Assembly: GCF_056712565.1 (NCBI RefSeq)
Contig: NZ_CM160072.1
Strand: one strand, 5' to 3'
DNA length: 64,000 bases
The first letter of the stretch is position 1. The number at the start of each line of letters is the position of its first letter. The translations under genes were made by a program, and so were the position numbers. This document shows, one piece after another, positions 13,892 to 33,777 of this stretch. Under the pieces are notes generated by a model, which was given only the letters and a program-made list of their open reading frames with translations, did not search any database and was not told the origin of the DNA.

Positions 13892-15253
13892 ATGTTTAAA
13901 CCGGAACTCCTTTCCCCGGCGGGAACGCTGAAAAATATGCGTTACGCTTTCGCTTATGGCGCAGATGCTGTTTATGCGGGCCAGCCGCGTTACTCCCTGC
14001 GTGTACGCAACAACGAATTCAACCACGAAAATCTTCAGCTCGGCATCAATGAAGCCCACGCGCTGGGGAAAAAGTTTTATGTCGTGGTCAACATTGCACC
14101 GCACAACGCCAAGCTGAAAACCTTTATCCGTGACCTGAAACCGGTGGTGGAAATGGGGCCGGATGCGCTGATTATGTCCGATCCAGGGCTGATTATGCTG
14201 GTGCGTGAACACTTCCCGGAAATGCCAATCCACCTCTCGGTACAGGCTAACGCCGTAAACTGGGCGACGGTGAAATTCTGGCAGCAAATGGGTCTGACCC
14301 GCGTGATCCTCTCTCGCGAACTGTCACTGGAAGAGATTGAAGAGATCCGCAATCAGGTGCCGGATATGGAGATCGAAATCTTCGTTCACGGCGCGCTGTG
14401 CATGGCCTACTCCGGTCGCTGCCTGCTCTCTGGCTATATCAACAAGCGCGACCCGAACCAGGGCACCTGCACCAACGCCTGCCGCTGGGAGTACAATGTC
14501 CAGGAAGGGAAAGAAGATGACGTCGGCAACATCGTACACAAGTACGAGCCGATTCCGGTGCAAAATGTTGAGCCGACGCTGGGTATCGGCGCGCCAACCG
14601 ACAAAGTGTTTATGATCGAAGAAGCCCAGCGTCCGGGCGAGTATATGACCGCGTTTGAAGATGAGCACGGCACTTACATCATGAACTCGAAAGATCTGCG
14701 CGCCATCGCCCATGTTGAACGCCTGACCAAAATGGGCGTGCATTCGCTGAAAATCGAAGGCCGTACCAAATCTTTCTACTATTGCGCACGCACCGCGCAG
14801 GTTTACCGTAAAGCTATCGATGACGCCGCTGCGGGCAAACCGTTCGATACCAGCCTGCTGGAAACGCTGGAAGGTCTGGCGCATCGTGGCTATACCGAAG
14901 GTTTCCTGCGTCGTCATACCCACGACGATTATCAGAACTACGAATACGGTTATTCGGTTTCTGACCGCCAGCAGTTTGTTGGTGAGTTTACCGGTGAGCG
15001 CAAGGGGGAGCTCGCGGCGGTAGCGGTGAAAAATAAATTCTCCGTTGGCGACAGCCTTGAGCTGATGACGCCGCAAGGCAACATTAACTTTACCCTTGAG
15101 CATATGGAAAACGCCAAAGGTGAAGCGATGCCGGTCGCACCAGGCGATGGTTATACTGTGTGGCTCCCGGTGCCGCAGGATCTTGAGCTAAATTACGCGC
15201 TGCTGATGCGTAATTTCTCCGGGGAAACCACGCGTAACCCCCACGGTAAGTGA
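13892..15253 (+). CDS. yegQ: Peptidase U32-family protein YegQ
   Basis: 453 aa starting MFKPELLSPAGTLKNMRYAFAYGADAVYAG; conserved position next to cyaR. Confidence 0.9.
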   Translation: MFKPELLSPAGTLKNMRYAFAYGADAVYAGQPRYSLRVRNNEFNHENLQLGINEAHALGKKFYVVVNIAPHNAKLKTFIRDLKPVVEMGPDALIMSDPGLIMLVREHFPEMPIHLSVQANAVNWATVKFWQQMGLTRVILSRELSLEEIEEIRNQVPDMEIEIFVHGALCMAYSGRCLLSGYINKRDPNQGTCTNACRWEYNVQEGKEDDVGNIVHKYEPIPVQNVEPTLGIGAPTDKVFMIEEAQRPGEYMTAFEDEHGTYIMNSKDLRAIAHVERLTKMGVHSLKIEGRTKSFYYCARTAQVYRKAIDDAAAGKPFDTSLLETLEGLAHRGYTEGFLRRHTHDDYQNYEYGYSVSDRQQFVGEFTGERKGELAAVAVKNKFSVGDSLELMTPQGNINFTLEHMENAKGEAMPVAPGDGYTVWLPVPQDLELNYALLMRNFSGETTRNPHGK

Positions 15254-15337: not shown

Positions 15338-15424
15338 GCTGAAAAACATAACCCATAAAATGCTAGCTGTACCAGGAACCACCTCCTTAGCCTGTGTAAT
15401 CTCCCTTACGCAGGCTTATTTTTT
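15338..15424 (+). ncRNA. cyaR: Hfq-dependent small RNA CyaR (RyeE); 3' terminator overlaps the prophage att core
   Basis: Sequence GCTGAAAAACATAACCCATAAAATGCTAGCTGTACCAGGAACCACCTCCTTAGCC followed by terminator hairpin and T-run, matching the CyaR sequence as I recall it. Confidence 0.8.
15398..15424. repeat. Prophage left attachment core (27 bp, AATCTCCCTTACGCAGGCTTATTTTTT)
   Basis: Near-identical copy (2 mismatches) of the 27-bp core at 49972..49998; embedded in the cyaR terminator. Confidence 0.8.
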
Positions 15425-15525
15425 ACGCGTAACACAATGAAATAAAAGGATTTATTTCTGGTCACGTCCACACATTGACCACATCGACAAAAAAGCCCCT
15501 CGACTGAGGGGCTTCCTGTTTGTAA

Positions 15526-15744
15526 TTACATCCACATAATTTGCTGCCCTGACGGCAACGGGTGCGGTCTTACGGCGTGGACTTCTCCCGGCTTCACGAT
15601 GTATCGCTGTACCGACTCATAAGTGATGAATGTGGCGCTGCAATTCACGTTCTGACACTGGTGATAACGCTCTTTTGTCGTGTCAGTGATATAGCGGCTT
15701 GTACGCGCATGTGCGGCATGCTGGCATAAAGGACAATGAAACAT
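15526..15744 (-). CDS. ogr: Late-gene transcription activator Ogr (zinc finger)
   Basis: 72-aa product MFHCPLCQHAAHARTSRYITDTT... with C-x2-C...C-x4-C; ORF-track start 15807 is upstream of the real ATG. Confidence 0.9.
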   Translation of the reverse strand: MFHCPLCQHAAHARTSRYITDTTKERYHQCQNVNCSATFITYESVQRYIVKPGEVHAVRPHPLPSGQQIMWM

Positions 15745-15825
15745 CGCGAGCACCTCTTCCGGTTTTGTTGATGGTGCTATTTTAGTTAATTTATCCTTAT
15801 AAAACAAATAGATAAAATAAAAACA

Positions 15826-16989
15826 TCACTCATCATCTTCTGTTTCGTACTCCACATCAGAAAGCCTGACCTCAAGCTCCAAGGACGTCGTGAAGCCGCT
15901 ATTATTCAGAAAATGTGTCACCTTAGTGATTGTCCAGTCCTGCTCGTCTATGACGCGCTTAAAGCCTGACACTTTAACCGGTGTTTCCGTGTAAATATCT
16001 GCCCGACCGGTAGCCAGGCTGATGGAGAACTCCGCAACGCCCCGTTGCAGCTTATCCCACTTCGCCTGAGCGGCGCGCATGGCCTGCGCTTTCGTGGCAT
16101 ATACCGCGGTCAGGGCAAAAACATTGTCAGCCTCACCTGCCATGTATTCACCTTCGCGCGCTTCCGGTACTTTTGGCGCTTTCTTCTGCGTGACTGGTTT
16201 CGCTTTCGGGTGCTCCAGTGCGCGCAGGTGTTTCTCTTTCTTTTTGCGTTTCAGTTTTACCTTCTGCTTTTGTGGCTTCGGGTCTTTGGTGTGTAACCAC
16301 TTTGCCGTTACGCCGGTATAGGCTCCACGGTCAGCAATCGCAAAATGATGGCGGTCGCCGTCGCTGCGGGTGATGGTAATCTGCGGGATTTTTTTACCGC
16401 TGGCCGTCACCCCCTGCCCCGCCTTGAGAAACAACAGTTTTCCCATTTTTACCGACACCTCACCGCCGTTGCGTTCAGCAAGGCGGGTCAGGAATTTTGC
16501 ATCAGACTCCTGCGACTGGTCGATGTGCGGGATTTTAATTCCGGCCAGTGACGGAGCGACACTGGCTTCCAGCCTGTTACGGGAGGCTATCGCTTCAACA
16601 ATCGCACCGAGCGTGGTGTCATGCCAGGAGCCTTCACGGCGGGAATTGAGCGTCCCGCGAAAATCTGCACTCCGGGCGCGGATGGTGACCACATCCGGTG
16701 CGCCCCGGTGTTCAACCTCATCAACGGTAAATTTCCCTTTGCATACCAGGGCAAAACCTTTCCAGCCGATATACACCGTCAGGACAGCGCCACGAACCGG
16801 CAGCCCGACCTGCCCGTCGGCATCGTTCAGTTCAATATCAAGCTGGTCAGCCTCAAAGCCCCGGTTATCCGTCAGGGTCATGCTCATCAGACGGTCGCTG
16901 ATATTGCCGGTAATATCCCTGTTGTCGAGCATCAGCATGTAATCCGGCGTCAGCGTACTGCCTGCATCAAATGTCAGTGCATCCAGCAT
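15826..16989 (-). CDS. D: Tail protein D
   Basis: 387 aa, P2 gpD size and position. Confidence 0.85.
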   Translation of the reverse strand: MLDALTFDAGSTLTPDYMLMLDNRDITGNISDRLMSMTLTDNRGFEADQLDIELNDADGQVGLPVRGAVLTVYIGWKGFALVCKGKFTVDEVEHRGAPDVVTIRARSADFRGTLNSRREGSWHDTTLGAIVEAIASRNRLEASVAPSLAGIKIPHIDQSQESDAKFLTRLAERNGGEVSVKMGKLLFLKAGQGVTASGKKIPQITITRSDGDRHHFAIADRGAYTGVTAKWLHTKDPKPQKQKVKLKRKKKEKHLRALEHPKAKPVTQKKAPKVPEAREGEYMAGEADNVFALTAVYATKAQAMRAAQAKWDKLQRGVAEFSISLATGRADIYTETPVKVSGFKRVIDEQDWTITKVTHFLNNSGFTTSLELEVRLSDVEYETEDDE

Positions 16990-17468
16990 TATCCCGCCCC
17001 CGTCATATCCGTGAATTTAGTCGCCATACTGCCAGCCTTACCGATGAGCGATTCTGCCTGTTTACCGATATCGCCATAAAGCGCGGCCAGTGATTCATCA
17101 ACGCGGGTGAGCGACAGCGTAAAATCAATTTTCCGGGGTGTGCCGTCTGCAAAGAAAATACTCCCTGTTTCACTCACCCTGCTGATGACATACATGCCGT
17201 AAATCATGCCGGTGCCATCCAGCAACGGCCACGCCCGGCCTTCCTCAGCCATCAGCCTGAGCGTGGTCATCGTCAGCTTGCCGCCGGTCAGTTCGGGATA
17301 AAGCACACCGGCAAGCGTGATATTTTCCTCGCCAACACCGAGAAACTGAAAGGCATCCCGTTTGCCGATACGGGAATTTGACGCCCAGCGATAATCTGAT
17401 TCACGCTGCATGGTCTGGTGTGGCAGCGTCTGGCGCATAAAAACAAACATACCTAACGCGAGCATCAT
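16989..17468 (-). CDS. U: Tail protein U
   Basis: 159 aa, P2 gpU size and position. Confidence 0.85.
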   Translation of the reverse strand: MMLALGMFVFMRQTLPHQTMQRESDYRWASNSRIGKRDAFQFLGVGEENITLAGVLYPELTGGKLTMTTLRLMAEEGRAWPLLDGTGMIYGMYVISRVSETGSIFFADGTPRKIDFTLSLTRVDESLAALYGDIGKQAESLIGKAGSMATKFTDMTGAG

Positions 17469-17482
17469 TTTTCGTCACCTCC

Positions 17483-19930
17483 TTAACCGTCATGCATCAT
17501 GCTGGCACGGGCGCGCGCACGTTTATCCCGCTCGTATTTTTCGAGCGCATCCTGTAACTGGCGGTCAAGCTGTGTCCCCGGCGCAGTACCACCCGTCAGG
17601 CTGATGTGATATTCGTTTTTACTCTGGTCCACATAAGAGCGGCCAGCCGGTGCCGTGACCGGCTGATAAGCCTGATAGCCTGCATAAGAGCTGGTCGCCG
17701 GAATATAACCACCGGTGCCATACGTGGCGGCATGAGTTCTGGCGGCGGTCTGGTCAAGTGTGTCTGACTCTTTGTTGATAACACCGAGTTTTTCCAGTAC
17801 CCAGTCAATACCGCTGCGCAGTTTGTTGAACGCATTAAGCGGCAGCATCAGCGCGTCAGCCAGTGCCTGCCCGAACATGACGCCCGTGTCACGGCAACGG
17901 TTCAGGGTGTCCCGGGTGGCTTTAACCGGAGCAATCAGGTTTGTAAACCACTGCCACGCGGCCTGTAACTTTTCGCCCAGCCAGTCAAACACCGGCTTAA
18001 GTGGCGTGAACAGCTCCCCCACCGGCGCAAATGCCGCTTTCAGCCCTTCAACCACACCGCCAAAGAATGCGCTGACAGGCTCCCAGTATTTACGGATAAG
18101 CAACGCCCCGGCGACAATGGCAGCCACCACGGCCACAACCGGCCAGCTAATCGCCCCGATGGCCGTCATAACAGCACTGCCAACCGTCGTGAAGATTGCC
18201 CCCATTGCGCCTGCTGCCGCGATAATAGCATTGATGCCGGTGATAACCGGCCAGGCTACGAGGCCAATGGCACCAATGATGCCAGTCAGCGCCAGTGCAC
18301 CACCGGCAATTAGGCCAATGGTTAACGCCAGTGATTTGTTTTTCTGGATCCAGCCGTCGAGTTTTAACACATACTTTGTGGCCGTCTGCGTGAGCTTACG
18401 CAGTGCGCCTTCCTGCTGGTCAAACAGGTCAGTCCCCACCGCCTCATAAGCGGACTGAAACTCCTTAAAGTCACCGCCGAGGTTGTCCTGCATGATATTT
18501 ACCAGTTCTGCGGTCTTTCCGTCTGAGGCTTTAAACGCAGCGGTCAGTTTGTCCAGCTTTCCGGTTGAGGCGGCAGTCATCAGCACGGCGGCGGCTGAAC
18601 TGGCCTCCTCCCCGAAAATGGTTTTCATGTATTCAGCCTGCTGGGCAGTACCGAGCCGGTTTTTCTCAAAACTGGCCTGCATTTCTTTCAGAATGGTAAA
18701 TACTGGTCGGGTGTTTCCCTTACTGTCTGAGGTTTTCACACCAAGCTCTTTGAGTGCATCCCATGCTTTTCCCGTCGGTGCCTGCAGGCGGCTTAACACG
18801 GCACGGCTTCCCGTTCCCGCCATTGAACCGGTAATTTTTGCATCATGCAGCGCCCCGACCATTGCGGCTGTTTCTTCAATGCTGACACCGGCATTTTTTG
18901 CCACAGGTGCGGCATAGGTCAGCGCATCGCTCATACCGTCAAAATCGGCGGCGGTTTTGTTCATCGTCATGGAGAGAACATCCCCGATATGAGCGACCTT
19001 ATCGTTTGAAAGCTGAAAGGCGGATTTCATCCCCATCAGCAGGGCGGCGTTTTCTTCCATCGTGCGGCGGTTCGCCAGCGCCATATTCAGCGTGACCGGC
19101 GTTGCCGCCTGAATGGCATCAACATCCCCACCGGCTTTCGCAATGATAATCTGCGCACCGGCAGCATCATCCGCCGAGGCGGCTGTGTTGTCGCCGAGCT
19201 GGCGCGCCTGTTTGCGTAGCGCGGCCATTTCGGCAGAATCTTTTGCCACACCGAGCACGGCCTGTAATTCTGAGTTTTTCTGCGCAAACTCATAACCGGG
19301 CATCAGCAGCTTAACACCGGCCATCGTTCCCGCCGCCGCAATCCCCACACCGGCAGCGCCCACTGAGGCCATATTTCCGGCCAGTTCCTTTCCGGCCTGA
19401 TAACGCTGTTTGACTGCGTTAAGTTTTGCCTGTTGCGCACTGACACGCGCCAGCGCGTCACGCTGCCGGTTAAGCTGGGCGGTGGTTTCACTGATACGGT
19501 TTTTCAGTCCCTGCTCATCATGTGCAAGATTGCGGGTATTAATTCCCACAGCGGCCAGTTCCCGCTGCTGGCGTTTAACGGAATCTGTCAGGCGGTTATA
19601 TTTCGCCTGTAAGTCCTCCGCCGCACGCTTTGCGGATTCCAGCACTTTCGCCTGAGCACGGGTCGGGCGTTCGGTGTTTTTAAACTGTGTGGCAAGGGCT
19701 TCGGCCTGCTGCCGTGCCTTTTCAAGTGCATGACCAGTCACGGCGAGCTGTGCACTGGTCTTGCGGAATCCCTCAATACGGGATGCGTGACCGTTCAGCT
19801 CGCGCAGTGATTTTTGTGTTTCCCGGATATCCCCCGACAGCAACTTACTCGCTGTGCGGATGGATTTAAACGGGCGGGACGCCTGGTCAACAGCCCTGAG
19901 CAATACCTGTAATTTTACATTGTTACTCAT
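17483..19930 (-). CDS. T: Tail tape-measure protein T
   Basis: 815 aa, Ala/Gly-rich with coiled-coil N-terminus; P2 gpT size. Confidence 0.88.
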   Translation of the reverse strand: MSNNVKLQVLLRAVDQASRPFKSIRTASKLLSGDIRETQKSLRELNGHASRIEGFRKTSAQLAVTGHALEKARQQAEALATQFKNTERPTRAQAKVLESAKRAAEDLQAKYNRLTDSVKRQQRELAAVGINTRNLAHDEQGLKNRISETTAQLNRQRDALARVSAQQAKLNAVKQRYQAGKELAGNMASVGAAGVGIAAAGTMAGVKLLMPGYEFAQKNSELQAVLGVAKDSAEMAALRKQARQLGDNTAASADDAAGAQIIIAKAGGDVDAIQAATPVTLNMALANRRTMEENAALLMGMKSAFQLSNDKVAHIGDVLSMTMNKTAADFDGMSDALTYAAPVAKNAGVSIEETAAMVGALHDAKITGSMAGTGSRAVLSRLQAPTGKAWDALKELGVKTSDSKGNTRPVFTILKEMQASFEKNRLGTAQQAEYMKTIFGEEASSAAAVLMTAASTGKLDKLTAAFKASDGKTAELVNIMQDNLGGDFKEFQSAYEAVGTDLFDQQEGALRKLTQTATKYVLKLDGWIQKNKSLALTIGLIAGGALALTGIIGAIGLVAWPVITGINAIIAAAGAMGAIFTTVGSAVMTAIGAISWPVVAVVAAIVAGALLIRKYWEPVSAFFGGVVEGLKAAFAPVGELFTPLKPVFDWLGEKLQAAWQWFTNLIAPVKATRDTLNRCRDTGVMFGQALADALMLPLNAFNKLRSGIDWVLEKLGVINKESDTLDQTAARTHAATYGTGGYIPATSSYAGYQAYQPVTAPAGRSYVDQSKNEYHISLTGGTAPGTQLDRQLQDALEKYERDKRARARASMMHDG

Positions 19931-20350
19931 TCGTGTTTCCGCTTCGCCTGAGCGCCTTTTCGCGCCATGTGATGAGTTCGGTCAGGCTCATGGGATACAG
20001 TTCTGATGGCGGCCAGTGAAATATCACTGCCACATCCGCCATCAGGTCATCGACCGACAGATTTTTCGGAAGCGTCACTGCACCGAGTTCGGCGACAAAA
20101 AACCGACCACCTTACCGGCCAGCGCCACAAGGTCAGGCAGTTCCAGCGCGGCGACTTCCTGCTCGGTCAGCATCGGTGCCGTCATGCGCGGCAGCACCTT
20201 AATCAGTGCATCGACTTCGGAGTTCGCGACCGCAGCCAGACTGACACCGCGCAGCGTCCCGGCATTAGGTTTCATCAGCGTGACCTGTTCGATAACCTGC
20301 TCACCACGCTTGACCGGATTGTCCAGGGTAATCACATTTTCTTTGTTCAT
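19924..20350 (-). CDS. E': Tail assembly chaperone E+E' (-1 programmed frameshift product)
   Basis: -1 frame after TTTTTTG (20096..20102) stays open to a TAA at 19924..19926 that overlaps the T start codon (ATGAGTAA). Confidence 0.75.
20075..20350 (-). CDS. E: Tail assembly chaperone E
   Basis: 91 aa between T and FII; ends just after the slippery heptamer. Confidence 0.85.
   Translation of the reverse strand: MNKENVITLDNPVKRGEQVIEQVTLMKPNAGTLRGVSLAAVANSEVDALIKVLPRMTAPMLTEQEVAALELPDLVALAGKVVGFLSPNSVQ
20096..20102 (-). other. Slippery heptamer T_TTT_TTG for the E/E' -1 frameshift
   Basis: Complement of caaaaaa at 20096..20102, in frame as G-F-L within the gpE C-terminus. Confidence 0.75.
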
Positions 20351-20406
20351 GGTTTTCTCACTTCTGAATCGGGGTTAACCGGTCAGCCAGGCTGACCGGA
20401 TGAAAA

Positions 20407-20925
20407 TCACAGGCCGATATTGCGGCGGTGTTGCTCCAGCCGGTCGACGCCGTTCACCTTCTCAATCATGTTGATGGTGTCGATTTCGACCAGCTCCTTA
20501 CCGTCCATCGTCAGCCGGAAATAGGTGCAGACCACGGAGATTTTCGACTCGGTGTCTTCTCCCTGTTTGCCCTCGCCGGTGTCGATTTCTTTCTGACGTC
20601 CACGCATGACCACCTCGACGGCCACCGTTTCGCCGGTATCGTCGCGCTGGTAAGAGCCTGCAAAACGAATCGGTACGGAATCCACACCGGTTGCGGCGTA
20701 AAGCTCCCAGATAACCGAATCCGGGAAGCCACCGAGCGACCACTCCATTGACAGCGCATCGTCATCAAGGCCGAGGTCTACCGGTGCGCTGCCGTTCATC
20801 CCCGCACCGCGATAGTTTTCGAGCTTACGGGTCAGTTTTGGTAGCGTGACGGACTTCGCGACGCCCTGATAGCTGTAGCCGTTCAGAAAGACGTTCATTA
20901 ACTTGAGTTTGCGCGGCATTGCCAT
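20407..20925 (-). CDS. FII: Tail tube protein FII
   Basis: 172 aa, P2 gpFII. Confidence 0.88.
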   Translation of the reverse strand: MAMPRKLKLMNVFLNGYSYQGVAKSVTLPKLTRKLENYRGAGMNGSAPVDLGLDDDALSMEWSLGGFPDSVIWELYAATGVDSVPIRFAGSYQRDDTGETVAVEVVMRGRQKEIDTGEGKQGEDTESKISVVCTYFRLTMDGKELVEIDTINMIEKVNGVDRLEQHRRNIGL

Positions 20926-22130
20926 CGGTCAGGCTCCTTATAATTGCTGTTAACCGAGGTGACCAGATTTGCCAGGTATTTATCGGTAATACGCTGGCGC
21001 AGGGTCAGGTTTTCAAGAGGAGGCACCGGTGTATAGTCGTAGTCGATATACAGTTTTCCGGCCTTGAGGGTTTCCGCATCGTTGGATTCTTCGCTGAACC
21101 AGCAGGTCGCATCCACGATATAGCCGTTTGTTTTCAGCTCACGGAATTTGGCATTGATGCCGTCAACGATGTCGCGAATCAGCGTTGCGGTGATGGGCTT
21201 GTCCACCGCCCACATGTGCGCCTCAGCCATCGTGTCAGCCAGTACCTGCGCGGTGCGGGTGTAGTTTTCAAAGAGGAACAGCGGGTCATCAGAGCAGGTA
21301 CGGTTACCCCAGAATCGGAAACCGTCGCGGCGAATCAGCGTAGTGACGCCTGACTCGTTAAGCAGGTCAGCATCGGTGCCGGACTCCTGCAAATCCCAGA
21401 ATACAGATGCGCTGATGCCGGTAACACCGTTTACCCCGACGTTGGACAGCGTTTTATGCCAGCCCTGCTCCTGGTCGATTTTAGCGCGCAGACCCAGCGC
21501 ACGGGCGGTGGCATACGCGGTAGCGGTGGTACTGGTGACCGTATCCCATGCGAGGAAATCCGGCCAGATGACCATCAGCTCACGCTGGCTGAAATTCTGG
21601 CGGTAGGCTTTCACCTCGGAAATGGTCTTACAGCCCCATGCGCTGATATATCCGAAAGCGCGCAGCTTCTGACAGACGGATGCCAGTGCAACAGCCACCT
21701 CTTTGGTATCCAGTCCCGGCACACCGAGAATACGCGGTTTAACACCGGTTACCGACTCCGCCGCCAGCAGGGCTTTTAGTCCGGTGTACTGACCGTTTTC
21801 GTCGGTGGTGCCGATGATATTGGAAACGGTCTGCGCGAGTTTCGTTTCCTCGTCATCACCGGTGCAGTCTTCCACGCGCACGACAACGGTGACCGGTTTT
21901 GACTGGTCAGCGATGGCCTGCAACGATGCCGCCAGCGTGCCTTTTTTACCGGCCTTTGCAATTGCGCTTTGCACATTGGTAATCAGCACCGGTTTATTGA
22001 GGGGGAAGGTTTCCGCATCCGCATCGCTGGCCGTGCAGACCATGCCGACAATGGCAGTGGATACGGTGGAAATGACGCGGGTGCCGTCGTTAATCTCCAG
22101 CACCTGCACGCCATGATGATAGTCACTCAT
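20898..22130 (-). CDS. FI: Contractile tail sheath protein FI
   Basis: 410 aa starting MSDYHHGVQVLEINDGTRV. Confidence 0.88.
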   Translation of the reverse strand: MSDYHHGVQVLEINDGTRVISTVSTAIVGMVCTASDADAETFPLNKPVLITNVQSAIAKAGKKGTLAASLQAIADQSKPVTVVVRVEDCTGDDEETKLAQTVSNIIGTTDENGQYTGLKALLAAESVTGVKPRILGVPGLDTKEVAVALASVCQKLRAFGYISAWGCKTISEVKAYRQNFSQRELMVIWPDFLAWDTVTSTTATAYATARALGLRAKIDQEQGWHKTLSNVGVNGVTGISASVFWDLQESGTDADLLNESGVTTLIRRDGFRFWGNRTCSDDPLFLFENYTRTAQVLADTMAEAHMWAVDKPITATLIRDIVDGINAKFRELKTNGYIVDATCWFSEESNDAETLKAGKLYIDYDYTPVPPLENLTLRQRITDKYLANLVTSVNSNYKEPDRWQCRANSS

Positions 22131-22222
22131 CCGTTTAACTCCGTGGTTAATGGGTACAACTATTTTCTGTTGTGCAGAGCATAAGACGCTATTTGACCTG
22201 GCTGGTCAGTGGATGAAACAAC

Positions 22223-22253
22223 AGATAAAGAAAAGGCGGGCAATTCGCCCGCC
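22223..22253 (-). terminator. Rho-independent terminator between cargo region and the FI operon
   Basis: 7-bp GC stem ggcgggc/gcccgcc with a T-run on the minus strand (complement of agataaagaaaa). Confidence 0.5.
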
Positions 22254-22460
22254 TGTCCTGATTTGTACTCACTCATTTTCCGCCTGACAATTTACATAGC
22301 CCAAATGCTATCAAACCTGACAGTCTGCTTTGAGCGAAAAGTGGACATTAGAGTTACAAAAGCAAGTTTAAATCATCCAAAATATTACAATGTCCTTATC
22401 TATCTGATATCGTTATGATAAAAAGCTCCTGAATATAATCGATAGTAGGTGGTTATTTCC

Positions 22461-22838
22461 ATGAAATCAATTTTAGAGGTCTTTACTCAAGGAAATACTA
22501 AAGAAAAACTGGCTGTTATCGCCGATCTCACAACCATTGCGGGAATATCGATTGCAACTATTATTGCTGGTTTGTTAACCCTAGTTGCAAAAACAGATAA
22601 ACTAGATGTTGGAAATCTGTTTGGAGTTGTCATAATATCTCTGCTCGGATTGGCTGGTGTTTGCTGTTTTGTGGCCTTATTTATTTGGGTTATAACCCAA
22701 ATGTCTAAACCATGGGGAACACCTCGGGGGGTTCAGCCCTTAGTTAAGTGTGCTATTTCCCTTATCTTTATCTGTATGTTTTTGCTGGCTGTCTTTACAT
22801 TTTATGAGTTTATTTCTTCGATGAGCATACGCTATTGA
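22461..22838 (+). CDS. Small hydrophobic membrane protein (3 predicted TM helices), prophage cargo
   Basis: ORF 22449..22838; likely start ATG 22461 (MKSILEVF) with AGGTGG RBS; AT-rich. Confidence 0.6.
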   Translation: MKSILEVFTQGNTKEKLAVIADLTTIAGISIATIIAGLLTLVAKTDKLDVGNLFGVVIISLLGLAGVCCFVALFIWVITQMSKPWGTPRGVQPLVKCAISLIFICMFLLAVFTFYEFISSMSIRY

Positions 22839-22860
22839 ATATAAAATCAGCCCCCATAAC

Positions 22861-23445
22861 TTAAAAGAGACCTTCTATATCGACTTCAATGCCCAAATAA
22901 CGGACTGTGCTTTCCAGTTTCTTATGGCCCAACAGAAGTTGGATCACCCGGAGACTCTTGGTTTTCTTGTAGATTAAGTAAGGTTTTGTTCTTCTCATGG
23001 AATGTGTGCTGTACAGCGAATCTTCGAGACCAAGCTTTTCTACCCACCCATGAAAAATTCGGTTGTATTGCCGGGTTGATATATGGTGGTTAGTTCCGAC
23101 CCGAGAGCGGAACAGGAAGCCTTTACTATGCCAGTTGCCGAGCTTTATCAATGCAGTAACCGCTTCCCTTGTCCCTTTGGTTATCTCAAATTGGACAGGG
23201 CTGCCGGTTTTCTGTTGCAACACCGTTGCTCTGCTTGAGACAGAACTGCCATATGCAGCATCTGATACTTTGAGTTTGACCAAATCACAGCCCCGTAGCT
23301 TAGTGTCCAAAGCCATGTTGAACAGAGCTAGATCGCGTGTTTTACCTTCCAACTCAAGTCTAATCCGGATCCCCCAGATATGAAATATCTGAAGTGGCCT
23401 TTTTTGACCGATGGTACGGTCTTTATTCCACGGTGACGTTTTCAT
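22861..23445 (-). CDS. Small tyrosine recombinase (phage-integrase family, FimB/FimE-sized)
   Basis: C-terminal catalytic signature HSMRRT...LLGHKKLESTVRYL (R, H-x-x-R, Y); likely start ATG 23445 with AGGAGA RBS giving 194 aa. Confidence 0.7.
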   Translation of the reverse strand: MKTSPWNKDRTIGQKRPLQIFHIWGIRIRLELEGKTRDLALFNMALDTKLRGCDLVKLKVSDAAYGSSVSSRATVLQQKTGSPVQFEITKGTREAVTALIKLGNWHSKGFLFRSRVGTNHHISTRQYNRIFHGWVEKLGLEDSLYSTHSMRRTKPYLIYKKTKSLRVIQLLLGHKKLESTVRYLGIEVDIEGLF

Positions 23446-24275
23446 ATTCAAATCTCCTGCAATGTGGGAGATTTGAGTATGGTTGTCTCTCAAGAGCGAA
23501 AATAAGTCAACTATCACTAGTTGTTGCGCATGTACGTATTCTGTCAATTAATTATTGACAATCATCAATTCTGGAATGATCAAAATCATCATATCGAATT
23601 ATAGTCTGGTTGACTGTATCTATTGTTGGTGTCATTTCTGTTATAATATCCTGATAACCTAAAGAGTTAAATACATTTACTAAGGCCTCACACCGAAGGG
23701 CCGTAGCAATTACAAAATTATAAATTGCCAGCCGTTTATTTTCTTGTTTAACTGCAAGAATGAATTCGATAGCAGTATTTTCATCACTTTGGATTGCATT
23801 ATATAGAGATACTATATTTACCATATCATCAGAGAATGTATGTATTGAATCACAAAGGGGAACGTAATGGGCATGATAGTGTGTTTCCCAGCCAATTAAT
23901 TCAAAAAGTCTTCTGGTTCCTGGATATTCAGGTGTATTTGGCCACAATCTATTAAATAGATCAGTTAGTTCTTTTCCCATGCGAATCCTTTCATTTGCTG
24001 CTGGATTAGTCATTCCTTTGGATTTTAAACACTCCAGCCACCGTTTTCCATTACTATGAACTAATTTCTTACTAGCCTTGAGTAATGCTTGTGCATTTTC
24101 GCCATCATCTATTGCTATATAAAATTGATTGGCAGCCTGTTCTATTATAACCCTAGCTAATACTTCCGATGCTGAAAAGGCTCCTATATTCAAAGAAGAG
24201 ATAGCCTGATTACTAAGTTCATTCAGTACATTAAAGTACTGTAAGACCATCAATTTTTGTTCCACACCCTTTAGG

Positions 24276-24280
24276 TTGTC
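24276..24280. repeat. IS2 target-site duplication, TTGTC (copy 1)
   Basis: 5 bp immediately flanking the IS2 terminus, identical to 25612..25616. Confidence 0.85.
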
Positions 24281-24291
24281 TGGATTTGCCC

Positions 24292-25197
24292 CTATATTTC
24301 CAGACACCTGTTATCACTTAACCCATTACTGGCTTGCTGCCGTAGATATTCCCGTGGCGAGCGATAACCCAGTGCACTATGCGGATGCCATTCGTTATAA
24401 TGCTCGAACGCCTCTGCAAGGTTCTTTGCTGCCGTTAACCCGTCTGGTTTGGGCATGACACTGATGTAGTCACGCTTTATCGTTTTCACGAAGCTCTCTG
24501 CTATGCCGTTACTCTCCGGACTCCGCACCGCCGTGCTCTTCGGTTCAAGCCCCAACATCCGGGCAAACTGCCGTGTTTCATTAGCCCGGTAGCATGAACC
24601 ATTATCCGTCAGCCACTCTACTGGAGACGCCGGAAGCTCGTTGCCGAAGCGGCGTTCCACCGCTCCCAGCATGACGTCCTGTACTGTTTCACTGTTGAAG
24701 CCGCCCGTAGTGACCGCCCAGTGCAGTGCCTCACGGTCACAGCAGTCCAGCGCGAACGTGACTCGCAGTTTTTCTCCGTTATCACAGCGGAACTCGAACC
24801 CGTCAGAGCACCATCGCTGATTACTTTCTTTCACAGCCACTCTGCCTGTATGTGCCCGTTTCGATGGCGGTACAGCAGGTTTTCGCTCAAGCAACAGCGC
24901 ATTCTGGCGCATGATCCGGTAAACACGTTTGGCATTGATCGCAGGCATACCATCAAGTTCTGCCTGTCTGCGAAGCAGCGCCCATACCCGACGATAACCA
25001 TACGTGGGCAGCTCTCCGATAACATGGTGTATACGGAGAAGCACATCCGTATCATCAGTGTGACGACTGCGGCGGCCATCCATCCAGTCATCGGTTCGTC
25101 TGAGAATGACGTGCAACTGCGCACGCGACACCCGGAGACAACGGCTGACTAAGCTTACTCCCCATCCCCGGGCAATAAGGGCGCGTGCGCTATCCAC
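24292..25197 (-). CDS. insD: IS2 transposase InsD (orfB, DDE domain)
   Basis: 301-aa ORF inside IS2. Confidence 0.9.
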
Positions 25198-25520
25198 TTT
25201 TTTGCCCGTCCATATTCAACGGCTTCTTTGAGGAGTTCATTTTCCATCGTTTTCTTGCCGAGCAGGCGCTGGAGTTCTTTAATCTGCTTCATGGCGGCAG
25301 CAAGTTCAGAGGCAGGAACAACCTGTTCTCCGGCGGCGACAGCAGTAAGACTTCCTTCCTGGTATTGCTTACGCCAGAGAAATAACTGGCTGGCTGCTAC
25401 ACCATGTTGCCGGGCAACGAGGGAGACCGTCATCCCTGGTTCAAAGCTCTGCTGAACAATTGCGATCTTTTCCTGTGTGGTACGCCGTCTGCGTTTCTCC
25501 GGTCCTAAGACATCAATCAT
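25155..25520 (-). CDS. insC: IS2 InsC (orfA, HTH)
   Basis: 121-aa product [41 protein letters not shown]...; overlaps insD in -1 frame. Confidence 0.9.
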
Positions 25521-25611
25521 CTGCTCTCCAATGACTAGTCTAAAAACTAGTATTAAGACTATCACTTAAATAAGTGATATTGGTTGTCTGGAGATTCAGG
25601 GGGCCAGTCTA

Positions 25612-25616
25612 TTGTC
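25612..25616. repeat. IS2 target-site duplication, TTGTC (copy 2)
   Basis: 5 bp immediately flanking the other IS2 terminus. Confidence 0.85.
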
Positions 25617-25768
25617 TATTTTATTTTTATGCTCCTCAAATTTTGCATGGATATATTTATTTATCGCGGCTATTTTTTTTACATCTTCGTCAAGATCAAA
25701 CGGGCAACGTCCAAACAATTCTTTTTTCATATATTTCTCCTGTTGTACAAGCTTCCATAAGTTGGCAG

Positions 25769-25794
25769 ATTATACACTGAAGATTACCTATAAA
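25769..25794 (-). promoter_or_regulatory. Candidate sigma70 promoter for the IS2-disrupted cargo gene
   Basis: Minus-strand TATAAT (25769..25774) with TTTATA upstream (25789..25794); spacing about 14 bp, so tentative. Confidence 0.35.
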
Positions 25795-26151
25795 TAGCTG
25801 TGCGGGATAGCAGATCAGTGCAAGAAGTACAACCAAGTGAACTGTGCGTATTCAGATACCTGGCCTAACGTTCGCGATAGCCGTCCCCTGCACGAAGCCA
25901 TATATTAGATGTATTAGCTCAGACCTTATCTGACAGGTTGAGTAGGTAGAATCTAATCAAAGCTGACAGTCTGGTTTGGACTGTGAGTTCAACCGATGGA
26001 TGCAACACACAGCGATCTACGGACATTACTAGCATAGCTGTGTATTAATCATCGGGAAGCAGGTCAGTCCGCTCCTAGCACAGAGCAGACTGTCAGATTA
26101 GGCTTTACTCTGTGCTATAGATACGTTAGCTCACTCCAGAGATCATACAAC

Positions 26152-26679
26152 TTATTGCGGCATTTCCGGCCATTCAGGATTTGCAGGATCCACACGGCTG
26201 ACCAGAACACTGTAGCGTTCCCATGCTTCCAGTCGGCTACGCTCCTCATCTGTTGCCATATTCAGTCTGACAGAGCGTTCCAGTGGCTGAATGATAGTTT
26301 CAGCTTCGGAAAGCAAAGCTGACTTCTGTAATTCCGCCAGTTGCAGCTGTTCGTCTGCCGTATAAATCCGCTTAATCACGGCACCATCCTTAAACATCCA
26401 TTTACCTGAGTCATCAGCACGTCGGTTGGCGGTAATATCAGGAACCTCGACAACGCTAAAACCTTCAGGGTTGAGCGTTGAAGCATCTCTGGTGATGCCG
26501 ACAATTATATTATTCTCATCGTAAACAATCTTTATCGTGTCTTCCTGAAAATTACTTACTTCCTCATACCAGTTTTTTCCCTCTTCGGACCATAACCAGA
26601 TAACATCAAAATTTTTTGTCAGTTGATATTGGGCAACAGTTTTTGGATTACCCGCAGTAATATTTTTTAAATGCTGCAT
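26152..26679 (-). CDS. G: Tail fiber assembly protein G
   Basis: 175 aa immediately downstream of tail fiber gene H. Confidence 0.85.
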
Positions 26680-26682
26680 AAA

Positions 26683-29412
26683 TTACACCTGTGCGACGTT
26701 ATACCATGTGCCATTGATGTATTTTTGTATTGGTCTGAATACTGCGGGGTCATCACCATCGACTTCACCGACAATACCAAGCCCGGTAATTACGTGCCCT
26801 GCTTTCTCATACATCACCCCTTTCTGCATGGTCTGGACAACACGTGTGCCAAGTCTGACATCTCTCACATAGCGGGAATCAAAGTTACCGTAATCCGAGG
26901 GATTAACACGCCCCGTAATATTTATGGTTTTATTACTTTGAACGCTTCCGGAGACAAAGCGCATAACATGGACGCTATTAGCATAAACATCCAGATTACC
27001 ATCACCATTTTGTTTAAAGCCCGTGTCATTATCACCCAAAACAATCGAATTACCGCCAAGAGCACTGGATGTTCCTATACCCAGAGCACCATTCAATTGA
27101 CCACCAGATAACGGCAGTGCACCGACATCTCCCGCTGTAGGTTTTCGCGTTGTGGTATAAAACTCAGACCAGTCAGCCTCGAATCCGTAACCGTCACGAG
27201 CAGAACGATAAAAAATACCACCGTTCTTATAATTAACGCGAAACTGGGCGGCGGGACAACTTCCTTCCCCGATATTAAAATGAAGAATTAACGTTGATGC
27301 CCCACCAATAGTTGCGTTATAGGCTCCGCTACTCCAGTTCCATCCAACGGCTTTATCATTCGCAACGGTGTCTCCTGTTTTTCCTGAAGCAAATGCACCA
27401 ATATTTTTCGGCGTCAGGTTAATATCTGATGTTCCATCAAACGAAACGTTATTAATTTTACGGGCTGTTTTCAGCTTTGTTGCTGTCGCCGCATTGCCGG
27501 ACAGTTCACCAGAAAGGCCAGCACTGAATGTCTGTTTCGCGCCCCATGTCTGGGCTTCGTCGATAATTGGCACACGTCTTGTCGTGATCGTGCGGCTTCC
27601 CGGATTTCCTGAAATACGCACCATAAAAAAGCGGTAGTTGGCTTTACTTACAGTGCTGCGCCATACATGCATTGAGCGTCCCGAACCAGAATCATCACTC
27701 GGACCGACTGAGATGTTTATCAGGTTGCCATCAATGACGCCCCAGTCCATACCGTCGGGAATATTGGTCATGTTATCCAGCCGAACGGTTATCAGACTGC
27801 CCGGCACAAAATCGTATGTCTGCCAGTCCAGGCTGGTGAGTTTTGCCACTGCGCCACCGATACCCAACTCTAACGGCAAAGAGTTTGAGTTATAAATCTG
27901 TCGCCACTCCCCCCACGCGTTAAATGAGCCACCAAGAAACACTCGCTCATATAAACGGTCTTTTGTAGCTGCGCTGGTTCCTGTGGTCGTGTAACGTTGC
28001 AAAACATAGACACCATCCTTGCGCCTGATGACTTCCAGAAAACCAGACTGCCCCTGGATTGGGGTGTGGGTCGCTTTGCCTGTCACACTGTAAATACCTG
28101 GAGACATCAAATCATCCAGGTCATCCTCATAGAAGGTACTACTGGTCTGATAACCAATTTGGATCCAGTCTTCCCACTGTGGATTTTCTGCATCCCATTT
28201 GGCTGTCAGGCCGCGAATATACATAGTCCCGTTACGGGTTGTATAACGCTGTGTGCGTCCATATAGCCCACCTTCGAAAATTTCCAGAATGCCCTGCGCG
28301 TCTCCTCCCTGCTCGGGGTAATGTCGTTCAAAAGAAGCTATTGCTGAACTGCTGTTTCTCCATAGACCTAAATGTTCTGCGCCACCGAGAGAGTTAAGGT
28401 CAATGGTCGTACTTAGAGCTCGCGTTACAGCCTGAACATGGCGCCATGCTCCCCATGGTCCATCATTACCATTCCATGTTCCAATGAGTTTGCGGATATA
28501 CAAATTTCCGTCACGTGTGGTATAGCGTTGCGTGCCTGCAAAATTGCCGCCAGTAAAAACCTCAAGCACACCGACAGCATTATCTTCAGGGAAGTTTTTC
28601 TCCAGTGTTGCGTTGGTGGACGTTGCTTTAGACCAGATACCTGAATAAGCCTTAACAGAACCAAACGTATTCAGATCAGCATCAACCGGCATTTCGCCAT
28701 TGTTTTTCATAAACGTCAGGCTGGTAACGCCAACATTGTCCAGAAAAGCTGATTTATCCTGGATATCTGCACCATTCTGATTTTTCGCCAGACGTGAATT
28801 TGCGTTGTCATTTGCTGCCTTGACCGCTTTTGGCGTTGCTGCCAATGACTCACTGGTGCTGTTTGTTGCACTGCTTAACTGAGTAAAACCTTTTTCTGTC
28901 AGCGTGGCGTCAGGATGGCGGCGGGACTGCTCATGCTCTGCGATTTTGTCATCGACGTAATCCTGCGTCGCCATCACTGTGCTGGCATCAATACTCAGCT
29001 CAACGGACGCCACGTTACTGACAATAATAACCATGCGGCAGGTCTGCGCACGCCCGGAGCCTTCAGCCAGTTCTGGCTTATAGCTTTCAGCCATGTTGGA
29101 TACCGCAATCAGTGTTCCGGCATCGTCATACAGACCAAGCTCACGCATCCAGAAGCCGCCCACTTCGGGCGGTACAACCAGTTCAGCCACGATATAGTTT
29201 TTATTCTTGTTATCCACGCTGACTTTATTCAGAGCGTGACGCCAGACCTCATGCACCAGTTTCGTCTGACCGGCATCCGGCACCGGCAATTTGCCATTAC
29301 CGTCACCCACGGCCATTGCAGACAGGGTTACTTTTTTCCCGCCGGGGACAGTGGCGGCTGCCAGCTTTGCGGCTCCGGCAGTAGTGATAACGGTTTTAAA
29401 TTTCGTGCTCAT
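26683..29412 (-). CDS. H: Tail fiber protein H (909 aa, enlarged distal region)
   Basis: Conserved N-terminus MSTKFKTVITTAGAAKLAAATVPGG; internal repeated modules in distal half. Confidence 0.88.
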   Translation of the reverse strand: MSTKFKTVITTAGAAKLAAATVPGGKKVTLSAMAVGDGNGKLPVPDAGQTKLVHEVWRHALNKVSVDNKNKNYIVAELVVPPEVGGFWMRELGLYDDAGTLIAVSNMAESYKPELAEGSGRAQTCRMVIIVSNVASVELSIDASTVMATQDYVDDKIAEHEQSRRHPDATLTEKGFTQLSSATNSTSESLAATPKAVKAANDNANSRLAKNQNGADIQDKSAFLDNVGVTSLTFMKNNGEMPVDADLNTFGSVKAYSGIWSKATSTNATLEKNFPEDNAVGVLEVFTGGNFAGTQRYTTRDGNLYIRKLIGTWNGNDGPWGAWRHVQAVTRALSTTIDLNSLGGAEHLGLWRNSSSAIASFERHYPEQGGDAQGILEIFEGGLYGRTQRYTTRNGTMYIRGLTAKWDAENPQWEDWIQIGYQTSSTFYEDDLDDLMSPGIYSVTGKATHTPIQGQSGFLEVIRRKDGVYVLQRYTTTGTSAATKDRLYERVFLGGSFNAWGEWRQIYNSNSLPLELGIGGAVAKLTSLDWQTYDFVPGSLITVRLDNMTNIPDGMDWGVIDGNLINISVGPSDDSGSGRSMHVWRSTVSKANYRFFMVRISGNPGSRTITTRRVPIIDEAQTWGAKQTFSAGLSGELSGNAATATKLKTARKINNVSFDGTSDINLTPKNIGAFASGKTGDTVANDKAVGWNWSSGAYNATIGGASTLILHFNIGEGSCPAAQFRVNYKNGGIFYRSARDGYGFEADWSEFYTTTRKPTAGDVGALPLSGGQLNGALGIGTSSALGGNSIVLGDNDTGFKQNGDGNLDVYANSVHVMRFVSGSVQSNKTINITGRVNPSDYGNFDSRYVRDVRLGTRVVQTMQKGVMYEKAGHVITGLGIVGEVDGDDPAVFRPIQKYINGTWYNVAQV

Positions 29413-29422
29413 TGTTTCTCAC

Positions 29423-29953
29423 TTATCCGGGATAAACAGTAATAACATCACCATCACAGACCACACCGCCTGTATACAGACAGCCGGGAATGTCCTGGAT
29501 AATGTTCAGACCGATAAGGTGGCGACTTGCGGGTTTGGCATCGGCAATAAGCCGTTCCATTTCCAGATACATCTCCTCCGTGATGCCGCTTTCCAGCACA
29601 CCGATATCAAGGCGAAAGGTTCCGGGCGGGTCGTTTGTCTCCCACCATTCCTTTACGTTAATGAGATAGCCGAGCGGCTCCACCACACGCCGGATTGCGC
29701 CTATAGTGCCCTTATGGCAGTGAATGAAATACGCATCGCGGATAACGGCGCGTTTTGTTGCTTCCGGCCACTTTTCATCCCACCTGTCAACAGAAAACGC
29801 CCACGCCAGCCACGGCAGCAGATTTGCCGGACAGGTGTCCGGGTTCCACAGCTCACGAATACTGACCGGCGTTTTTTCAATTTCCGCACAGGCTTTTGCG
29901 GCGGCAACTTCAAGCGGTGATGAGCCGGTCGGCAGCAGGCGCGAATCACTCAT
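29423..29953 (-). CDS. I: Baseplate protein I
   Basis: 176 aa, position between J and H. Confidence 0.85.
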   Translation of the reverse strand: MSDSRLLPTGSSPLEVAAAKACAEIEKTPVSIRELWNPDTCPANLLPWLAWAFSVDRWDEKWPEATKRAVIRDAYFIHCHKGTIGAIRRVVEPLGYLINVKEWWETNDPPGTFRLDIGVLESGITEEMYLEMERLIADAKPASRHLIGLNIIQDIPGCLYTGGVVCDGDVITVYPG

Positions 29954-30854
29954 CAGAGCCTCCGGTCACGACGCGGTATTCGGTACAGAAAGACGCCTGC
30001 GTACTGTTGAGCACGATGTCGGCCAGCGGTGCAGTCAGTTCGACACGCTGCACGCCTTCCACATGCAAAGCGGCATAAATGGCAGACAGACGGATGTCGC
30101 GCCCCAGCCGGTGCTGTGCCGTGATATACGCTTCCAGTTTTTTTACTGCGGCCGCGCGGATGGGTTCGCTTTCGGGACCAGGGTAAAGGTAAAGCGTGGC
30201 GTTTATCTGGTATTCAACGATGGCGGCAGACTGCACGGTCACGCGGTCAGCCACCGGCCTGACATCCTCGCCATTAAGGGCGTTACGTACCACCGCCAGC
30301 AGGTCTTCGGATGCCACACCGTTATTCTCACGTGACAGCACAGAGATGGTGACGCAGGCCGGAGACGGACTGGTGACAGAGATATCCGCGACACGCCCGT
30401 CGGCACTGCGGCCATGATACTGATAGGCACCCACCGACCCGGCGACGCTTAAGCCTTCAAACGCCTGCTGAATACGCAGCCGGTAATCGGTGTCAGACTC
30501 CATCACTGCCGGTGTCGGCGGGATAGTCGAATCATCTGCCGGGGTGATAATCAGGCGCGTGGTGTTGTAATTGGCACCAATCACATCAAGGTCATTACCG
30601 GCAGCACAGGCCAGCATCACCGCCCGTGCGGCCTCATTCACACGCTGACGCCAGATAAGTTCACGATAAGCATTTTCCTCCAGCAGTTTGACGAGAGGCT
30701 CGGATTCCAGCGTCAGGGTACGGGCGACCGCCTCCTGCTGGTCTTCCGGGTAAAGGGAAATCAGTGTCGCCTTGCGTTCGGCAAGAATGGTTTCAAAGTC
30801 CAGCTCCTCGACCACATCCGGTGCGGGTAGCTGGTTCAGGTCGATAATCGGCAT
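29946..30854 (-). CDS. J: Baseplate wedge protein J
   Basis: 302 aa. Confidence 0.85.
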   Translation of the reverse strand: MPIIDLNQLPAPDVVEELDFETILAERKATLISLYPEDQQEAVARTLTLESEPLVKLLEENAYRELIWRQRVNEAARAVMLACAAGNDLDVIGANYNTTRLIITPADDSTIPPTPAVMESDTDYRLRIQQAFEGLSVAGSVGAYQYHGRSADGRVADISVTSPSPACVTISVLSRENNGVASEDLLAVVRNALNGEDVRPVADRVTVQSAAIVEYQINATLYLYPGPESEPIRAAAVKKLEAYITAQHRLGRDIRLSAIYAALHVEGVQRVELTAPLADIVLNSTQASFCTEYRVVTGGSDE

Positions 30855-30858
30855 GGTT

Positions 30859-31206
30859 TCAACTCACAGGGATGGTTAACGAAAGTGGCTGGCCGGTGTC
30901 GTTGTGCTGACCGGTTAACGTGACCGTCATTCGCCCGTCAAAACTGCGCTCAGTGGTGACGGATGACAGGGTGACGCGGGGTTCCCATTTCAGCACCGCC
31001 ATGTAACAGGCGACCTTAATCTGCAACTCAAGCGCCGGAGTCTGCGGCTGGTCAATCATTGACGCCAGCAACGAGCCGTAATCACGACGCATCACCCGCG
31101 AGCCGACCGGTGTGCGCAGGATATCGCCGATACTCTGGCTGATATGCTCAAGGTCAGTGACAGTCAGGCCATCACTGCGATTCATTCCGAGATAACGCGC
31201 AGTCAT
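30859..31206 (-). CDS. W: Baseplate protein W
   Basis: 115 aa. Confidence 0.85.
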   Translation of the reverse strand: MTARYLGMNRSDGLTVTDLEHISQSIGDILRTPVGSRVMRRDYGSLLASMIDQPQTPALELQIKVACYMAVLKWEPRVTLSSVTTERSFDGRMTVTLTGQHNDTGQPLSLTIPVS

Positions 31207-31838
31207 AGAGGTCCTCCGGTTGTGCCGCCGCTGTCGCCGGGGTGTTTATGGGTATGCAGTACCTTACCGTTTGATGAGAGTTCACCGCCGGTGTGTTCAA
31301 TGTTGCCGCGCATCGTCCCGCCCTTCTGCACTTCCAGCGTGCCGGTAATCAGCCTGTTGGTGCAGACCACCTCCGGTGTGTCCAGGGTGACGCGGGTTGA
31401 TGCTTTCACCATGACCACCGGCACCGTGGCAGTAACAGAATCAGAAGCCGTCACGCTGGCCGTTTTAATTCCGCTTGCCGTGAGCGCACTGGTTTCGGGT
31501 TCATACTCAATCACCGCCCCGTCAGGGAAACGGATGTACAGGGCATCCGCCGACGCAGACGGCGCGGGGTTATCACCGGAATAAATCCCCGGCAGAACGA
31601 ACGCCGTGTCGAGTTCACCGCCCACGGCCAGAATCAGCACCTGTTCCCCCTCGGAAGGTGCCCACCACGTGCGCGAACGTCCGGCGCGATGGGTCAGCCA
31701 CTGAAGCCAGTCGGTGCACATGCCGCCGGTCTGCACACGGCAGCGACCGGCGTTAAGGTCGGTTTCGACGATAATGCCGGTGCGGATCATGTTGCGCAGT
31801 GCGCGCGCGAGTTCCTGAATATTTGCGAGAGTGTTCAT
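31203..31838 (-). CDS. V: Baseplate spike/assembly protein V
   Basis: 211 aa. Confidence 0.85.
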   Translation of the reverse strand: MNTLANIQELARALRNMIRTGIIVETDLNAGRCRVQTGGMCTDWLQWLTHRAGRSRTWWAPSEGEQVLILAVGGELDTAFVLPGIYSGDNPAPSASADALYIRFPDGAVIEYEPETSALTASGIKTASVTASDSVTATVPVVMVKASTRVTLDTPEVVCTNRLITGTLEVQKGGTMRGNIEHTGGELSSNGKVLHTHKHPGDSGGTTGGPL

Positions 31839-31904
31839 AACGGGAAGGATGCCGTCGGGTCATACCGGCGGCAATGTGACGATGAGGTGTCGGGAATGGC
31901 ACAA

Positions 31905-32357
31905 CTAACGGTCGAGGTGAGCCAGGATAATCTCTTCAATCATCTGCACATCCTCACCGGTAAAGCCGAGCAGAGGACGCGCCGGATAATCAATTTTCTT
32001 ACCGTCTTTCCGGTTTTCTTCCGACAGACCGAACTGATGCACGCTGGCAATTTTCGGTGACTTCCCGCCGTAAAACTCCATTGATGCCTGTTCCGGGCTG
32101 GCGCGGATATGCAAAAAACGACTGGTGATAAGTTTCGCAAACATTTTTCGCTTAACGCGACCGGTCTTTTTTCTGGCGCTCTGCTGCTGGCGTGGTGCGT
32201 AGGGTGTGCCGTCCGGGGCTTTCTGTGCCATCACCCGGCGCTGCTGACTCTGCCGCAGACGTTTCGCCAGTTCGGAGCTCAGTCGCCGACGCCCTGACGG
32301 TGACAGCGATTCAGTCAGTCCGGTCAGCCGGTCTTCAAAACGCTTAAACTCATTCAT
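31905..32357 (-). CDS. S: Tail completion protein S
   Basis: 150 aa. Confidence 0.8.
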   Translation of the reverse strand: MNEFKRFEDRLTGLTESLSPSGRRRLSSELAKRLRQSQQRRVMAQKAPDGTPYAPRQQQSARKKTGRVKRKMFAKLITSRFLHIRASPEQASMEFYGGKSPKIASVHQFGLSEENRKDGKKIDYPARPLLGFTGEDVQMIEEIILAHLDR

Positions 32358-33763: not shown

Positions 33764-33777
33764 GGTGTTTACTCCGT

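Follow-up and report, generated by a model that had tools for sequence, protein, structure and literature searches.

A P2-type prophage in the terminator of the small RNA gene cyaR and the probable origin of its variant stem

When a prophage has integrated into the terminator of a small RNA gene, which of the two genomes supplies each strand of the terminator stem, and does the RNA still end as it did before? This question is raised by a stretch of 64,000 nucleotides (hereafter the window; contig NZ_CM160072.1 of assembly GCF_056712565.1), in which a prophage lies between two copies of a 27-bp attachment core, the left copy forming the end of cyaR and differing from the right copy at two positions. 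According to our analysis, this is a P2-type prophage in the classic cyaR site, and we posit with good confidence that a 3' stem arm brought by the phage replaced that of the host and that CyaR works normally. The window is an ordinary P2 lysogen at a documented site, the phenomenon is already known, and the finding matters little in itself, the variant being predicted to be neutral.

The prophage and its attachment site

The sRNA gene cyaR (ryeE) is intact and occupies 87 nt on the + strand of the window (15338..15424). The Rfam family CyaR_RyeE (RF00112) matches positions 15336-15421 of this strand over the full length of the model (positions 1-85), with 100.2 bits against a gathering score of 47 (E = 8e-19). 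The gene starts downstream of the host gene yegQ (13892..15253, + strand; a 453-aa ORF named yegQ/trhP in matching E. coli records), which forms the left host flank, and this arrangement is common to all E. coli records fetched. CyaR is a CRP-activated, Hfq-dependent sRNA. A promoter scan of the window found no sigma-70 consensus for cyaR, as is expected for an activator-dependent promoter, and the region upstream of the gene is identical to that of ZJ3920, an isogenic non-lysogen.

The intrinsic terminator hairpin of CyaR was located by a terminator scan at 15389..15416 (+ strand), with 11 pairs and a 6-nt loop. Its 5' arm covers 15389-15399, the loop 15400-15405 and the 3' arm 15406-15416, after which TATTTTTT follows; the 11-bp stem and 6-nt loop thus run into a U-tract (UAUUUUUU). 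The left core (attL; 15398..15424, AATCTCCCTTACGCAGGCTTATTTTTT) is the last 27 nt of cyaR and spans the final two bases of the 5' arm, the loop, the entire 3' arm and the U-tract. The right core (attR; 49972..49998, AATCTCCCTTACACGGGCTTATTTTTT) mismatches it at core positions 13 and 15, with G at 15410 and A at 15412 on the left versus A at 49984 and G at 49986 on the right, and we refer to the two versions as the GA and the AG allele. None of 100 shuffles yielded two such core matches. The attR core is identical to the attP core of P2 and to the commonest cyaR allele of E. coli, with which the attL core agrees in 25 of 27 positions. Integration into the cyaR terminator, the overlap of a 27-bp core with the last 27 nt of cyaR (15398-15424 within 15338-15424) and the two mismatches had been put forward in the original prediction, which was made from the sequence letters; all three are borne out by the cores, the RF00112 match and the P2-type prophage between the cores.

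The body of this prophage (15425..49971, 34.5 kb) is of the P2 type (Peduovirus) and has the order ogr-D-U-T-E-FII-FI ... L-M-N-O / P-Q ... A-B-cox-C-int, which is the gene order of record ON470606. It is 94-97% identical to Peduovirus genomes over ~79% of the element and 99.99% identical to the prophages of strains HS13-1 and ATCC 11775. The first gene at the left end, adjoining cyaR, is the late-gene activator ogr (15526..15744, - strand; Pfam Ogr_Delta, 76.9 bits; position as in AF063097). Adjoining attR are cox, encoding the excision directionality factor and repressor (48074..48349, - strand; Pfam Phage_Cox, 161 bits), the immunity repressor gene C (48464..48763, + strand; Pfam HTH_3; position as gpC in ON470606) and int, encoding an intact P2-type tyrosine integrase of 337 aa (48879..49892, + strand; Pfam Int_N and Phage_integrase). 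All prophage core genes appear to be intact. An insertion sequence of 1.33 kb, whose transposase frames orfA and orfB overlap (136 and 301 aa; 24282..25611, - strand), visible as an alignment gap against HS13-1 and DSM 30083, hits a cargo gene only, one of the DUF5677 family. It is absent from HS13-1 and ATCC 11775, and we take it to be IS2 (IS3 family). ATCC 11775 instead carries ISEc12 in the AAA-ATPase gene of its prophage. Two regions of the prophage (~22340-28066 and 41312-44059) differ among similar P2-like prophages (4/0, S88, OZ039653); according to the sister-strain annotation mapped onto the window, the former holds a DUF5677 protein and a recombinase fragment and the latter an AAA-family ATPase, and both presumably correspond in position to known P2 cargo hot spots.

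The attP site rebuilt from both junctions is 97.9% identical to that of P2 (AF063097) over 625 bp and 99.5% identical to that of P24C9, and the int-attP-ogr region shows the same 97.9-99.5% identity to P2 and P2-like phages. Mapping the annotation of P2 AF063097 onto the window placed its Int core, Int arm, IHF and Cox sites. The ogr-side attachment arm (15425..15487) carries an IHF site at ~15423-15456 and Int arm-binding repeats at 15460-15487, and the int-side arm (49858..49955) carries an Int arm site at 49858-49884 and Cox sites at 49882-49955. The terminator hairpin of the P2 ogr/F operon (15493..15514), annotated in AF063097 and seen in our scan as a terminator-like site on the + strand, lies 70-90 nt downstream of cyaR and could stop CyaR read-through in lysogens and in K-12. 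The host flank to the right of attR (49999..50050, CTGGTCAC..CATTGACCACATCGA) itself resembles the Int arm-binding region of P2, with a local alignment score of 23 versus 8.0 +/- 1.5 (maximum 15) for 2000 shuffles. The same arm-like flank is found at the empty sites of ZJ3920, JJ1886 and 510016, and by this resemblance the 'empty' E. coli site seems to carry the relic of an older P2-like arm.

The preferred attachment site of P2 in E. coli is, we assume, locI, which was reportedly described as a P2 attachment site by Barreiro and Haggard-Ljungquist in 1992. The window agrees with P2 at cyaR in the 27-bp core (at attR), in orientation (ogr adjoining cyaR and int adjoining yegR), in the host context (yegQ-cyaR to the left and yegR-yegS to the right of the prophage), and in the Int, Cox and C module with its arm sites. 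It differs in the attL core, which is GA and not AG, and in having other cargo genes and an extra insertion sequence, and nothing is different in kind. An int-side (attR) junction at the cyaR locus is present in 647 of 5,426 complete E. coli genomes (~12%). 'cyaR RNA' has been listed as the insertion site of Wphi2 in E. coli W, of P2*B in E. coli B and of the ogr-D' remnant in K-12 (PMC3032704, Table 2). A full-text search of the literature found no paper analysing the core alleles at the cyaR site. In K-12 C600, cyaR runs straight into a P2 arm, ogrK and a D fragment, so that the CyaR of this laboratory reference is itself an attL-type junction with a partly phage-derived terminator, a reminder that host-phage chimeras can arise where an attachment site coincides with the 3' end of an sRNA. 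The original prediction was silent on both the classic P2 site and the K-12 junction.

Integration at the 3' end of an RNA gene is shared with phage 186 (tRNA-Ile), Fels-2 and SopE-phi (ssrA) and P2-like prophages at rybB (PMC3448106; PMC3032704). As in other phages and islands at the ends of tRNA, tmRNA and sRNA genes, the core in the window overlaps the end of the gene and the phage copy restores it. Different from these is the position of the joint inside a terminator hairpin, whose stem strands come from two genomes, so that sequence differences between phage and host appear directly as altered base pairs.

Predicted effect on the terminator stem

The CyaR hairpin of the window is predicted by ViennaRNA at -16.2 kcal/mol, with a single U.G pair. 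The E. coli 5' arm (GCCUGUGU) forms 11 pairs with each of four 3' arm alleles, with predicted energies of -16.2 kcal/mol for GA, -15.9 kcal/mol for AG, -16.6 kcal/mol for AA and -15.5 kcal/mol for GG; it has U at both variable positions and can therefore pair with either purine. The GA and AG stems contain exactly one U.G pair each, two positions apart, so that integration moved the wobble and added none. The claim that integration 'introduces' a G-U wobble thus does not hold, as one U.G pair is already present in the stem of the host AG allele, which was read in ZJ3920 and at attR (-15.9 versus -16.2 kcal/mol). CyaR of K-12 is identical in its 87 nt save the two terminator positions (15410 and 15412 compared with C600) and is likewise followed by a P2 arm; the wobble is at U6.G13 of the stem in the window, not at U4.G15, and seed and body are unchanged.

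Could the variant stem nonetheless measurably alter the termination efficiency, the 3' end or the Hfq-dependent stability of CyaR in lysogens? A double-terminator assay measured 41% read-through at the intrinsically leaky CyaR terminator (PMC9765468), which may leave room for small changes to matter; where a wobble sits can affect the kinetics of hairpin folding, and the DNA downstream switches from host flank to phage arm. However, stem length, loop, U-tract and the number of wobbles are the same in both versions, the body of the RNA is unchanged in the lysogen, and the predicted energy gap of 0.3 kcal/mol favours the lysogen allele, within a similar range spanned by the natural E. coli alleles (1.1 kcal/mol). 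K-12, in which CyaR was characterised, has that same phage arm downstream of the gene. We regard such an alteration as unlikely, and on the strength of these folding energies the two-base variant is predicted to be functionally neutral.

Origin of the GA arm

Three alleles of cyaR occur in E. coli, namely AG (ACACGGG), AA (ACACAGG) and GA (ACGCAGG). AG is by far the commonest, and AA, which gives a fully Watson-Crick stem, is found in roughly 520 genomes of the ST131 type. GA is rare, with 19 genomes showing the exact attL junction of the window, four empty sites (510016, LH13-b, 2018-11-1BCC and OZ547217) and two other lysogens. The window belongs to one clone with HS13-1 and the type strain ATCC 11775 (DSM 30083); all three carry one and the same prophage (99.99% identity) and differ by insertion sequences only. 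Judging by this comparison, which covered these three of the 19 genomes, all or nearly all of the 19 appear to be one clone, and the configuration of the window would then go back to a single historical event. Independent origins of the GA-attL lysogens had been considered and were discarded on the shared prophage of the three strains.

The host allele of this lineage can be read from its relatives. ZJ3920, the isogenic non-lysogen, has flanks 99.96-99.98% identical to those of the window over 29 kb (~6 differences outside the core), and its cyaR carries AG, differing from that of the window at the two core positions only. SCU-101, with near-identical flanks, likewise carries AG, and S88, which belongs to the lineage of the window, has a different P2-like prophage with AG at both junctions. 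From ZJ3920 and S88 it follows that the host allele of the window lineage was AG, which is now found at attR. The window lineage, ZJ3920 and S88 also share a ~5.2-kb block (~8599-13800) between yegP and yegQ with DUF4034, DUF1266 and PcfJ-domain genes, which is absent from ST131-type genomes (4/0, OZ039653).

The direction in which alleles move is best seen in ST131-type hosts. Their empty sites carry AA (JJ1886), and the lysogen 4/0 has the phage allele AG at attL and AA at attR. Across lysogens, the exact AA allele, which is known from hosts only, lies at attR in 20 genomes, against one that has it at attL, although the 20 concordant lysogens may go back to just a few integrations. The sole exception is OZ039653 (NZ_OZ039653.1), an ST131-type host with a prophage other than that of the window, which has AA at attL and AG at attR (positions 4911 and 39605 of the locus, reverse-complemented to bring cyaR onto the + strand). 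The direction of transfer is therefore not absolute. Heteroduplex segregation or a second event may lie behind the reversal, which illustrates a way for a phage to acquire the core allele of a host. The comparison of cores across lysogens, which the original prediction had proposed as a check, mostly points to a phage-derived arm at attL.

Where within the core the host sequence gives way to that of the phage is indicated by EC11, whose prophage is only 73-76% identical to that of the window. At its attL, GA is followed by a phage arm of the Citrobacter type, whereas attR is AG, so that here too a P2-like prophage, a divergent one, brought GA into an E. coli cyaR; the phage-specific bases at core positions 3 and 5 are present at attR only. 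By this comparison, host gives way to phage sequence between core positions 5 and 13, within CCCTTAC; positions of cleavage by P2 Int were not found in the literature searched. Viewed on the RNA, the joint inferred from these sequences would fall at the boundary of loop and 3' arm, with the 5' arm from the host and the 3' arm from the phage. The comparisons of EC11, ZJ3920 and 4/0 thus agree with the proposal that the terminator was rebuilt from host (5' arm and loop) and phage (3' arm and U-tract) sequence.

Outside E. coli, the GA core is no rarity. In IMG/VR it mostly follows a cyaR with the 5' arm GCCTGCGT, versus GCCTGTGT in E. coli, and with this arm GA forms a fully Watson-Crick stem in which G13 pairs with C. 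This combination forms the native end of cyaR in 37 species representatives, among them many Citrobacter, Salmonella enterica arizonae and diarizonae, Enterobacter, Atlantibacter, Lelliottia, Kosakonia, Siccibacter and Franconibacter. Four of the 37 are lysogens at the cyaR site and several others carry degenerate arm relics; such relics were noted after cyaR in S. arizonae, S. diarizonae and Pluralibacter. By sequence, the CyaR of the window is thus a cross-host chimera, with an E. coli body and a 3' arm typical of other Enterobacteriaceae.

We therefore posit that the integrase of a P2-type phage recombined its attP with the cyaR terminator, that is, with the last 27 bp of the gene, in a host lineage that carried ACACGGG (AG), the incoming phage most likely carrying ACGCAGG (GA). 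The switch from host to phage would lie in the loop of the terminator or at the very start of its 3' arm (CCCTTAC). The lysogen would then have host DNA in the body of CyaR, in the 5' arm of the stem and in the loop, and phage DNA in most of the 3' arm, in the U-tract and in all that follows, the displaced 3' arm of the host now lying at attR. With 11 pairs and one wobble kept in the chimeric stem, CyaR would be expected to terminate and to bind Hfq normally.

Searches of 50,697 phage records, of IMG/VR and of metagenomes yielded no free attP with a GA core. These searches are weak, as the positive control, an AG attP, was recovered only ~5-6 times as distinct sites in the phage set, three times in IMG/VR and not at all in metagenomes. 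All phage attP cores read (P2, P24C9, P22H1, P22H4 and three IMG/VR contigs) are AG. A phage origin of GA is most likely, a strong inference from the junctions rather than a direct observation.

The AG attP cores had at first led us to favour GA as the host's own allele, an AG phage having integrated into a GA ancestor whose allele was kept at attL. GA does occur at a few empty E. coli sites, and OZ039653 shows that a host allele can stay at attL. This explanation was dropped on the evidence of ZJ3920, of 4/0 versus JJ1886, of the 20:1 distribution of AA and of EC11, and it is in our view very unlikely: both the isogenic ZJ3920 and SCU-101 carry AG, as does attR of S88 from the same lineage, and 510016, the one GA empty site examined, has a right flank markedly divergent from that of the window and is thus not a close relative. 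That both junctions were AG after integration and cyaR then gained two substitutions in place, for example via AA, is extremely improbable, for although a GA attP was not found, AA is at attL in one genome and all intermediates would keep the stem paired, two further changes within 3 bp are hardly expected beside ~6 differences in 29 kb of flank, the outcome exactly matches the allele native to other enterobacterial cyaR genes and their P2-like phages, and the AA-attL genome, an ST131-type host with a different prophage, is not an intermediate of the window clone.

Chimeric terminators in other lysogens

The reverse of the chimera in the window is shown by two IMG/VR contigs (L091 and L092, positions 2588-2620), in which a non-E. 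coli cyaR with the 5' arm GCCTGCGT is joined to an AG core and a P2-type arm. Here the consequences are likely to be larger. The Citrobacter-type 5' arm (GCCUGCGU) is predicted at -18.1 kcal/mol with GA and at -12.0 kcal/mol with AG, so that the junction of L091 and L092 brings a C.A mismatch into the terminator and a predicted loss of ~6 kcal/mol.

One may extend these observations to the idea that P2-like phages act as shuttles which carry 3' arms of the CyaR terminator between Enterobacteriaceae, each integration testing a phage arm against a host arm because the joint lies inside the hairpin. The 5' arm of E. coli, which pairs with all four purine combinations at -15.5 to -16.6 kcal/mol, could then be an adaptation to frequent P2 lysogeny (~12% of genomes), and the 'empty' E. 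coli site with its P2 arm relic could be an ancient prophage scar. We consider this extension possible but doubtful.

A change of another kind is seen in E. coli O157:H7 TR01 (NZ_CP033605.1), where a P2-type prophage occupies cyaR (position 1606 of the extracted locus) and has a normal attR core at ~33631. Its attL reads GTGTAAT followed by GTCAGTTATTGGTGACATTTTTTGATATC: from core position 4 on, ~39 nt are unrelated to the P2 core, after which the P2 arm resumes. These ~39 nt recur as the attP or attL core in P2-like phages with other integration sites (L018-L021). CyaR of this strain has lost the native 3' arm of its terminator and gained a weak AU-rich hairpin (AAUGUCA-loop-UGACAUU, then UUUU). 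It is in this strain and in C.A chimeras of the L091/L092 type, and not in the window, that CyaR termination or Hfq binding might really change.
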